From a virus (lineage: Duplodnaviria; Heunggongvirae; Uroviricota; Caudoviricetes), in the IMG/VR virus record IMGVR_UViG_2690316210_000014: DNA of 7,115 nt; one strand, given 5' to 3'. Shown one piece after another: positions 5,571-6,611 of this stretch (positions are counted from its first letter, which is position 1; each line of letters starts with the position of its first letter). The notes beneath the pieces are model-generated. The model was not told the DNA's origin, did not search any database, and was given only the letters and a program-made list of their open reading frames with translations. The position numbers and the translations under genes are program-made.

Positions 5571-6611
5571 TCACCCCCTGAATCCCGGCGGAATTTCGGT
5601 ATCCGGTTCAGAAATATGATTCACACAACGCTGGTTGTTCGTGCCGCTTACCGGGAGCAACCAGGGGTTTTCAAAATTCCGGTCCGGCCCAAAAAACGTC
5701 GTCGCTCGCTGAACAAATTCCGTTCCCGCTTTCCCGGTCGCCGCCAGGTATCTCGCGTAACGCCTCACACCATCCAGCATGGTCTCTGGTGGCACCCCCT
5801 CGCGCAATCTGGCCTTCCAGGCACTGAATGCGGATTTCTTCGGGTTTGCCCCGGCACGCAACGGGTATTCCCGCCAGACCTGTTCGAACACATCCGGATA
5901 ATCCACTCGTCCCACAGGCTGCCCGGTGTTTTCCGGGGCTACCCGATCGGCTTCCCGCTGAATGGCGGAATCGGCTTCAGGCTGCTGCAGTTGGAGTGAT
6001 TGCTCCGGCCTTGCGGTCATCACCTGCTGCACAGCGCCCGAATCGGCTTCCGGTGTCGAGCCTGCTGGCTGACCAGGATTGACGGTCTGAACATCCCCTG
6101 CCTGGTTCGTGGCGTTTTTTACGCCATGGACCATAGTGTTTTGATCTTCTTTATCTGTATCTTTATCTGTATCTGTCGTGACTCGTCGTGACATGTGCGT
6201 GACATTTCGTGACGCGCCGTGACAATCGCCATTTTGTTCCCGCTTTCTTTCCCTCTCTCGCTGCGCCCTCTTGCGCTCTGCAGGAGATTTTGCGGTTTGC
6301 GAAATATTGCCGTTGTCCTCTTTAAGCACCTGGCGTTTTTCCCATCCAGTGATTAAATCACCATCAAGTACCCGCCCCTGCATCGTCTGCAAAATTGAAT
6401 CAATTACCTCTTCTGTCACGTCGAGCGCACTTGCCAAATCTTCTGTCGTGACATCAATGTGACCTCGCGTGACATTTCGTGACGCGCTCACCAGGAGGTG
6501 GATATACACTGCCATCACTGTTGCAATTGGCTGCCCTGACACCCTGGCAATTGTTCGCCACTTAGGGTCATTTGGCATGTCATGCCATAATCTGAGCCAG
6601 GCGTTAGCCAT
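5571..6611 (-). CDS. Phage replication initiator (lambda O-like / YdaU-like), with internal iteron arrays
   Basis: ORF ending TGA 5571-5573. The longest form starts at GTG 6617; the ATG at 6609-6611 preceded by AGAGGTGA is the likelier start (MANAWLRLWHDMPNDPKW...). It lies immediately upstream of the DnaC-like loader. A central low-complexity polar/acidic linker (RRVTTDTDKDTDKEDQ) is encoded by the repeat DNA, the same organisation as lambda O/ori. No catalytic motif recognised; function inferred from context. Confidence 0.65.
   Translation of the reverse strand: MANAWLRLWHDMPNDPKWRTIARVSGQPIATVMAVYIHLLVSASRNVTRGHIDVTTEDLASALDVTEEVIDSILQTMQGRVLDGDLITGWEKRQVLKEDNGNISQTAKSPAERKRAQRERERKREQNGDCHGASRNVTHMSRRVTTDTDKDTDKEDQNTMVHGVKNATNQAGDVQTVNPGQPAGSTPEADSGAVQQVMTARPEQSLQLQQPEADSAIQREADRVAPENTGQPVGRVDYPDVFEQVWREYPLRAGANPKKSAFSAWKARLREGVPPETMLDGVRRYARYLAATGKAGTEFVQRATTFFGPDRNFENPWLLPVSGTNNQRCVNHISEPDTEIPPGFRG
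6148..6223. repeat. Candidate replication origin core: AT-rich 12-bp tandem repeat followed by five phased CGTGAC iterons
   Basis: TCTTTATCTGTA at 6148-6159 and 6160-6171, plus a partial copy to 6176; this tract is about 29% GC by hand count. CGTGAC hexamers begin at 6177, 6187, 6198, 6208 and 6218, spaced 10-11 bp (one helical turn). All of this lies inside the initiator-like gene. Confidence 0.5.
6413..6487. repeat. Second iteron cluster in the 5' part of the initiator gene; contains an exact 21-bp copy of a segment of the first cluster
   Basis: CGTGAC or TGTGAC hexamers begin at 6447, 6458, 6468 and 6478 (10-11 bp spacing), with an inverted GTCACG at 6415-6420. GCGTGACATTTCGTGACGCGC at 6467-6487 is identical to 6197-6217. 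TCTGTCGTGAC also recurs at 6172-6182 and 6442-6452. Confidence 0.45.

Follow-up and report, generated by a model that had tools for sequence, protein, structure and literature searches.

Two phased box arrays inside the replication initiator gene of a lambdoid prophage: a candidate bipartite origin

Why should a prophage replication initiator gene carry the same 21 bp twice, 270 bp apart? The question is raised by a stretch of virus DNA of 7,115 nucleotides (IMG/VR record IMGVR_UViG_2690316210_000014; the whole stretch is referred to here as the window), which comes from a lambdoid (Rac/Qin-like) prophage of E. coli. Each copy of the repeat belongs to an array of short boxes, one per helical turn, the first (L) in the part of the gene that encodes a disordered linker and the second (N) in the part that encodes the N-terminal DNA-binding domain. 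Both arrays are real, non-random, conserved in position, covarying and under selection at the DNA level. The N array is very probably a functional component of the replication origin. We surmise, with a probability of roughly 0.55, that it is the accessory arm of a bipartite origin which is embedded, together with its core, in the coding sequence of the lambda-O-like initiator itself.

The repeat, the boxes and the initiator

The 21-mer GCGTGACATTTCGTGACGCGC occurs on the plus strand in exactly two copies, and no third copy was found in the window at up to three mismatches (0 expected from 200 shuffles). Both lie in one open reading frame (5571-6617), the product of which contains ASRNVT twice, within ASRNVTRGHIDVTT and ASRNVTHMSRRVTT; an earlier note on this DNA had described the repeat, its 270-bp offset and the duplicated peptide correctly. 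A second repeat, the 11-mer TCTGTCGTGAC (6172-6182 and 6442-6452), has the identical offset, and the two arrays, taken as 46 nt each, have 32 exact bases in common, split into two blocks. The repeats are part of a larger pattern, in which the pentamer GTGAC, read as GTCAC on the gene strand, recurs every 10-11 bp in two arrays. Its copies are at 6178, 6188, 6199, 6209 and 6219 in the L array and at 6448, 6459, 6469 and 6479 (spacing 11, 10 and 10) in the N array. The features concerned are as follows.

5571-6611, minus strand: replication initiator gene (346 amino acid residues, ATG at 6611), which carries both copies of the 21-bp repeat
6447-6484, minus strand: N array, four boxes (on the gene strand GTCACG three times and GTCACA once) spaced 10/10/11 bp, at +86 to +117 relative to the DPKW codon, some 130 nt into the transcribed gene; its product, ASRNVTRGHIDVT, is the end of helix 3 and the loop preceding the helix-turn-helix
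6467-6487: copy 2 of the 21-bp repeat, inside the N array
6414-6420, plus strand: single inverted box (GTCACG on the plus strand, CGTGAC on the gene strand), encoding D-V-T
6177-6223, minus strand: L array, five GTCACG boxes spaced 10/10/11/10 bp, in the linker-coding region
6197-6217: copy 1 of the 21-bp repeat, inside the L array; two boxes and a spacer
6140-6176: AT-rich stretch adjoining the L array, AGATAAAGATACAGATAAAGA, purine-rich on the gene strand and encoding DTDKDTDKED
6103-6133: GC-rich inverted repeat just past the AT-rich stretch, TGGTTCGTGGCGT-TTTTT-ACGCCATGGACCA

Phased triplets of GTGAC (10-11 bp spacing) number five in the window, all of them within N or L, and none was obtained in 200 shuffles; likewise, every one of the nine CGTGAC hexamers (2.4 expected) falls in N, L or the inverted copy. 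The N array lies about 230 bp upstream of the L array with its boxes in the same orientation, and the boxes occupy all three codon phases. The earlier note's description of the second cluster as four phased copies plus an inverted one is thereby borne out. The role of the single inverted box is uncertain: its V codon is GTG in 18/18 homologues of the GTCAC class that have V at this place, and the box is missing from most of the other box classes.

The gene product is a replisome organizer, lambda-O-like in role, which consists of a winged-helix N-domain (residues 1-90), a basic helix, a disordered linker and a DnaT/DnaD-like C-domain. It matches phrog_3729 (“replication initiation protein”), its best PHROG, from end to end (E 6e-240). 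The names given by RefSeq to close relatives are “phage replisome organizer,” which is also the PGAP call for the E. coli protein, and “DnaT-like ssDNA-binding domain-containing protein.” No Pfam family, that of lambda O included, matched the 346 residues at E ≤ 0.01, and the N-domain scored 15.5 bits against the SPP1 G38P-type organizer model TIGR01714, the curated cut-off of which is 49.8. An AlphaFold model built on 38 homologues (mean predicted local distance difference test score, pLDDT, 70.9) has helices at residues 4-14, 16-25, 29-45, 56-63 and 67-77, a hairpin at 78-87, the basic helix at 110-127 and disorder at 131-160; the product of the L array is the linker, with a pLDDT below 50. 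By these helix positions, the N array covers the tail of helix 3 together with the loop that leads into the helix-turn-helix, and the L array falls in the disordered linker.

Conservation, covariation and selection on the DNA

The comparative set comprised 80 loci from different bacterial species, which were anchored on the conserved DPKW codons and scored for a phased pentamer. Scoreable were 76 of these 80, four phage loci and the window, 81 in all, and an L array was found in 69 of them. Most loci have one pentamer in two clusters, at about +86 to +120 and +310 to +390 from the DPKW codon, and clusters of at least three boxes occur solely at the N and L positions of each locus of about 3.4 kb. 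The locus's own L pentamer is present at least twice in an 80-nt N window in 78% of the 69 loci with an L array, versus 8% when loci were paired with those of other classes. Two separate clusters of the same box class are therefore conserved together in most of the 69 loci, as is expected of a bipartite origin. The N array is conserved across the Gamma-, Beta- and Alphaproteobacteria and beyond; among sequenced phages, Pseudomonas phage phita81A (69% identity) possesses both arrays with GTCACG boxes, and Ralstonia phage Firinga (37% identity) possesses both at the same gene positions with GCAACG boxes. The comparison of homologues suggested by the earlier note thus reveals both clusters at the same gene positions in most relatives, from many genera, and its proviso of a strain-specific, unconserved duplication clearly does not apply to the array. 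The N-domain homologues of three loci from Ventosimonas and Entomomonas metagenome-assembled genomes (L113, L116 and L128) have no NNNACG arrays at either position, so that their origin, if it lies in the gene, must use another repeat.

The box consensus is NNN-ACG(C), with the classes GTC, GTA, GCA, CGA/GGA, GTG and CTA. The boxes are specific to lineages (GTCACG, GTAACG, GCAACG, CGAACG and GTGACG), and in nearly every genome the class of the N array is that of the L array. A neighbor-joining tree of the N-domain places GTA-class loci within both the GTC and the CGA clades, both arrays having switched each time, from which it follows that a concerted switch happened several times.

That the N array is maintained as DNA is indicated by its codons. 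In 21 non-redundant homologues from different genera (58-75% identity to the window N-domain), which were picked by protein motif alone (VTRGH..VT), the box codons GTC, ACG, GGT and CAC are each used in 21/21, TCA in 20/21 and GCG in 19/21. The spacer Arg codon between the boxes varies freely (CGA 8, CGC 6, CGT 6 and CGG 1), and other conserved residues of the N-domain show ordinary synonymous variation. A mean codon entropy of 0.10 in the boxes versus 1.47 outside them (p = 1e-5) was obtained with a set chosen by the boxes at 96, 106 and 117 and is hence circular; only the recount by protein motif is free of this circularity. At the same loop, other box classes encode unrelated peptides, such as ANASERGRT, TQGNADATRGN and VTQGDADVTRGD. 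Members of the family that have no N array possess a comparably long loop, in which the invariant Arg-Gly is present as well, which suggests that an existing loop was recruited to carry the boxes. Judged by its codon usage, the N array is a selected DNA element. It follows that the duplicated peptide, which the earlier note had described as produced by the repeat, is a by-product of the DNA motif and not a feature of the protein, as the codon phases and the frozen synonymous sites also indicate. A candidate DnaA box beside the N array (TATATCCAC, a 7/9 match by eye) was dropped; its codons are not frozen in the homologues.

The proposed origin and competing explanations

The L array is presumed, by analogy, to be the core initiator-binding site of the origin. 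The marks of an iteron-type origin are present in the gene: phased short repeats (five in L and four in N), an AT-rich element beside L and a location at the boundary between the N- and C-terminal parts of the initiator. The GC content of 0.30 at 6140-6179, downstream of L on the gene strand, is the minimum of the region, and the stretch at 6140-6176 is a candidate DNA unwinding element. In 42 homologues, those of GC-rich hosts among them, L is followed by a tract rich in AGATA. The N array has no AT-rich element of its own. In most homologues a GC-rich inverted repeat is seen after the AT-rich tract, some 25-55 nt past the last L box (L003, L088, L104, L135, L142, L158, L114, L125, L157 and others). 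A perfect stem of at least 7 is present at this position in 31% of 65 loci, versus 7.7% of 195 control windows. The stems are wholly different between lineages, and the loops are recurrent (TAAC, TGAC or TGGC tetraloops, or the 11-nt TCACTACGTTC). The inverted repeat accordingly looks like a conserved hairpin element of the putative origin. Iterons and an AT-rich tract are found inside the initiator gene in lambda and the Shiga toxin (Stx) phages (PMC7466680) and, as oriL, in phage SPP1 (PMC5737612, PMC6316719); because the succession of L array, AT-rich tract and hairpin matches the layout of lambda ori and SPP1 oriL, we infer that L is the origin core.

On the strength of this architecture and of the lambda and SPP1 precedents, the initiator would bind the boxes, L with its AT-rich tract would be the origin, and N would act positively through DNA looping. 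The winged-helix domains of the initiator would occupy both N and L; the proteins bound at the two arrays would touch, looping or wrapping the roughly 230 bp between them; this contact would raise the occupancy of L, or stabilize the complex there, and aid the melting of the adjacent AT-rich element; and the C-terminal DnaT/DnaD-like domain could then recruit the helicase loader and DnaB. Three readings had been offered in the earlier note, a bipartite origin, an intragenic duplication and a substrate for deletion, and the first is the best supported by the conserved position, the matched box variant and the frozen synonymous sites.

Two further properties of the family bear on the second array. 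In some members, the upstream array takes other forms. Lysobacter locus L150 has six inverted boxes at +23 to +70 from the DPKW codon, in an insertion of eight residues between the first helices; in L137 the upstream array is at +150 to +180, in the part encoding the helix-turn-helix; and L112 (+106 to +168) and L127 have loop insertions that add boxes. In L150, L137 and L112 the upstream array is thus variously inverted, moved to another part of the sequence encoding the N-domain, or enlarged, its boxes lying on both strands. Upstream arrays have arisen more than once, in different loops, which suggests that a further array, 130-330 bp upstream of the core, is favored in its own right. Measured from the last N box to the first L box, the distance varies between 172 and 261 bp; it is within 0 ± 3 modulo 10 in 40/42 loci, a register shared by 23/25 distinct distances (binomial p = 0.009), which hints at alignment of the two arrays on the same face of the helix.

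Several points weigh against a bipartite origin with a positively acting N array. Relatives below about 40% identity carry the L array only, so that N is not required for the origin of the family as such. The rule that the N and L classes agree is broken in four loci, in one of which the N array is mixed (L142) and in three of which the arrays differ (L131, L117 and L124). The sites lie within the gene for the N-domain, and their inheritance together with it is consequently no proof that the N-domain is what binds them. The signal of the helical register is strong with a period of 10.0 bp, which is not the repeat of B-DNA, weakens at 10.5 bp and vanishes at 11.0 bp, and the sequences are related. 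No binding, origin-mapping or replication data for this initiator family were found in the open-access literature. Finally, a positive and a negative role of N would be indistinguishable by sequence alone.

A more elaborate version of the bipartite origin is possible, although we put it forward only tentatively. The DNA encoding the winged helix, flanked and invaded by its own predicted sites, may constitute a self-contained “specificity cassette,” in which the arrays loop out some 230 bp as a bipartite origin, the specificities of boxes and protein switch together, and the arrays are kept alike by gene conversion. The switches (seen at least five or six times) would then create replication-specificity groups, which, if the idea is true, let related prophages share one cell without competing for each other's initiators. 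In the allele of E. coli O157:H7 strain 7636 (L166, gene 942-1985), the N-domain and both arrays are kept (six and five boxes) and joined to an unrelated C-terminal half, a lambda-P-like loader gene replacing the DnaC-like one and the mosaic joint lying just after the AT-rich tract. Since the C-domain and the loader have been exchanged while the arrays stay, the N-domain and the two arrays travel as a unit.

Of the competing explanations, the one that survives best is that N is a negative or regulatory array, which pairs with L in cis or in trans (handcuffing or titration) or acts as a roadblock to RNA polymerase in its own gene, limiting both the synthesis of the initiator and origin-activating transcription. 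All that indicates N to be a selected site with the specificity of L is equally compatible with this explanation. N lacks an AT-rich element, distant relatives do without it, and it is situated about 130 nt inside the transcribed gene; in SPP1, moreover, the second G38P-bound site, oriR, is proposed to stall forks rather than to fire (PMC6316719). We nevertheless regard a negative role as rather unlikely. In plasmids, control arrays as a rule sit outside the gene or overlap the rep promoter, whereas N is inside the coding region; no promoter-like site was found at N, and the total for the region is not above that of shuffles; a limit on copy number would be of little gain to a phage growing lytically; and the Stx phages need their extra distal iterons for efficient replication (PMC7466680).

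It is improbable that the boxes are bound by some other factor, such as the upstream CII/YdaT-like regulator or a host protein, and that the arrays are regulatory sites, for instance antisense promoters. A precedent exists in lambda CII, which recognizes short direct repeats 10 bp apart within coding regions, and the boxes themselves form a promoter-like match antisense to the gene (6199-6226, plus strand; GTGACA-16 nt-GACAAT, 9/12). In the region such matches are not above chance in number; this one lies in L, and neither a promoter nor a terminator was found at N. As the match is made of GTCACG-class boxes it cannot exist in other classes, and the CGAACG and GCAACG boxes are unlike a -35 hexamer. 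The arrays stay with the N-domain where the neighboring genes differ entirely (phita81A, Firinga and MW202613), and the L array, AT-rich tract and hairpin at a domain boundary have the layout of an origin.

Far less credible still, and already contradicted by the conservation of the array, is a neutral intragenic duplication or gene conversion, with a functionless second array and a 21-bp repeat that serves mainly as a substrate for deletion or expansion. It would account for the exact matches of 21 nt and of 11 nt between the arrays, both at an offset of 270 bp (divisible by 3), and for the variation in array size between alleles. The N array of the O157:H7 allele (84% DNA identity) has six boxes versus the four of the window, being longer by exactly 21 bp, which amounts to two boxes, seven codons and two helical turns. 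The N array is, however, widely conserved with its synonymous sites frozen, and in other alleles N and L have only the box cores in common: the longest string shared by the two arrays is 10 nt in the O157:H7 allele and 18 nt in another. In these comparisons the extended 21-nt and 11-nt identity is specific to the allele of the window, and it looks as if an old design with two arrays had locally undergone duplication or gene conversion. The intragenic duplication proposed in the earlier note may therefore hold for the long identity and fails for the array itself, which is old and conserved.

Neither did the suggested role as a deletion substrate find support. A match was present in 2,090 of 5,426 complete E. 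coli genomes (about 38%), O157:H7 prophages included, and no 270-bp in-frame deletion was seen among the matches; 2,089 of the 2,090 cover at least 80% of the 541-nt query. With a synthetic deletion-junction query, the best 10 of 1,789 matching records each aligned in two pieces over about 390 bp, which corresponds to the intact arrangement. Close relatives at 94-95% DNA identity include seven sequenced phages.

The weakest proposal, protein-level selection of a repeated peptide (SRNVT or VT) in the domain loop and the linker, draws on the two occurrences of ASRNVT and on the Arg-Gly of the loop, invariant in the family even without an N array, and was rejected because the boxes lie in all three codon phases, third positions are frozen though synonymous codons are possible, the peptides encoded there by other box classes are unrelated, and the linker peptide is predicted to be disordered.

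Known origins and neighboring genes

Initiator genes with internal origins, accessory iterons and bipartite origins are already known. One close comparison is with lambda, the ori of which has a palindrome beyond its AT-rich tract. Like the proposed origin of the window, the lambda origin lies inside the initiator gene (O), at the junction of the origin-binding N-terminal part and the loader-recruiting C-terminal part, and its phased initiator sites, like the boxes of L, have an AT-rich tract after them (PMC7466680). In the Stx phages, which have six iterons, the extra distal ones are weakly bound yet needed for replication (PMC7466680). Unlike lambda O, the window protein matches no Pfam family and is without detectable similarity to O; its boxes are direct repeats of 6-7 bp, one per helical turn, instead of 19-bp palindromes; and its gene has a separate second array about 230 bp upstream, within the coding sequence of the folded DNA-binding domain. 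Gene 38 of SPP1 resembles the window gene, as proposed here, in that the organizer gene holds its own origin (oriL), with direct repeats as well as an AT-rich unwinding element, and in that G38P also binds a second discrete site, oriR (PMC5737612, PMC6316719). The second SPP1 site, however, is some 13 kb away and has its own AT-rich element, whereas in the window gene 230 bp separate N from L, and N lacks such an element.

Bipartite origins also include the oriC of Bacillus subtilis, which flanks dnaA, and the ori and crr of satellite phage P4. In Helicobacter pylori, oriC1 and oriC2 are likewise two separated clusters of boxes, one of which adjoins the unwinding element, with the initiator gene at the origin (PMC3479198). 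In these three systems the clusters are intergenic and flank a gene, or are kilobases apart; here both are in the coding sequence of the initiator, the DNA between them encodes the DNA-binding domain, and the initiator is neither DnaA nor P4 alpha. Plasmids P1 (incA) and F (incC) have a second iteron array near the origin, which is bound by the same initiator and acts negatively by pairing. Unlike the N array, these are outside the rep coding sequence, and the replicon of the window is a lambdoid prophage.

In the open-access literature we found no account of two iteron arrays within the initiator gene of this family, although an older one in a subscription journal is possible. What appears to be new, in that we did not find it described, is the combination: a second array in the coding sequence of the initiator's folded DNA-binding domain, conserved and covarying with the core array across a large family. 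About 38% of complete E. coli genomes carry the module, as do prophages and phages from many Proteobacteria, and its origin is apparently undescribed. If the two-array design works as proposed, it would be a compact natural overlapping code with DNA sites in all three codon phases of a folded domain, and a system suited to the study of initiators and sites that change specificity together. It would predict which prophages cross-activate or interfere with each other's replication and supply a sequence rule for finding origins of this family, namely NNNACG boxes at intervals of 10-11 bp, then an AGATA-rich tract and, after it, a hairpin.

The genes of the minus strand are, in order, those for a YdaT/CII-like protein, the initiator, a DnaC-like loader, DUF1627 and DUF977 proteins and a PstI-like restriction-modification pair. 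The two that adjoin the initiator gene are the following.

6683-7108, minus strand: gene for the YdaT/CII-like regulator, upstream of the initiator gene
4914-5564, minus strand: gene for the DnaC-like helicase loader, downstream of the initiator gene

The last 24 residues of the initiator (…SEPDTEIPPGFRG; gene end 5571-5645) closely match the C-terminal end of E. coli DnaT (PDB 6aep, 2ru8). Several close relatives, such as Tritos (L002) and that of strain FCI1 (L168), have no loader gene adjoining the initiator gene, which together with the DnaT-like tail hints at a link between the tail and the host primosome or DnaC pathway. The loader of the window, at 216 residues, matches the 248-position NCBIfam model in two stretches, 1-126 and approximately 170-253; this may reflect an internal deletion of about 45 residues and a defective protein. 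The restriction-modification pair, a PstI/BsuBI-type restriction endonuclease (189-1271, minus strand) and an Eco57I/N6-type DNA methylase (1268-3100, minus strand), is apparently cargo in the early region of the prophage.

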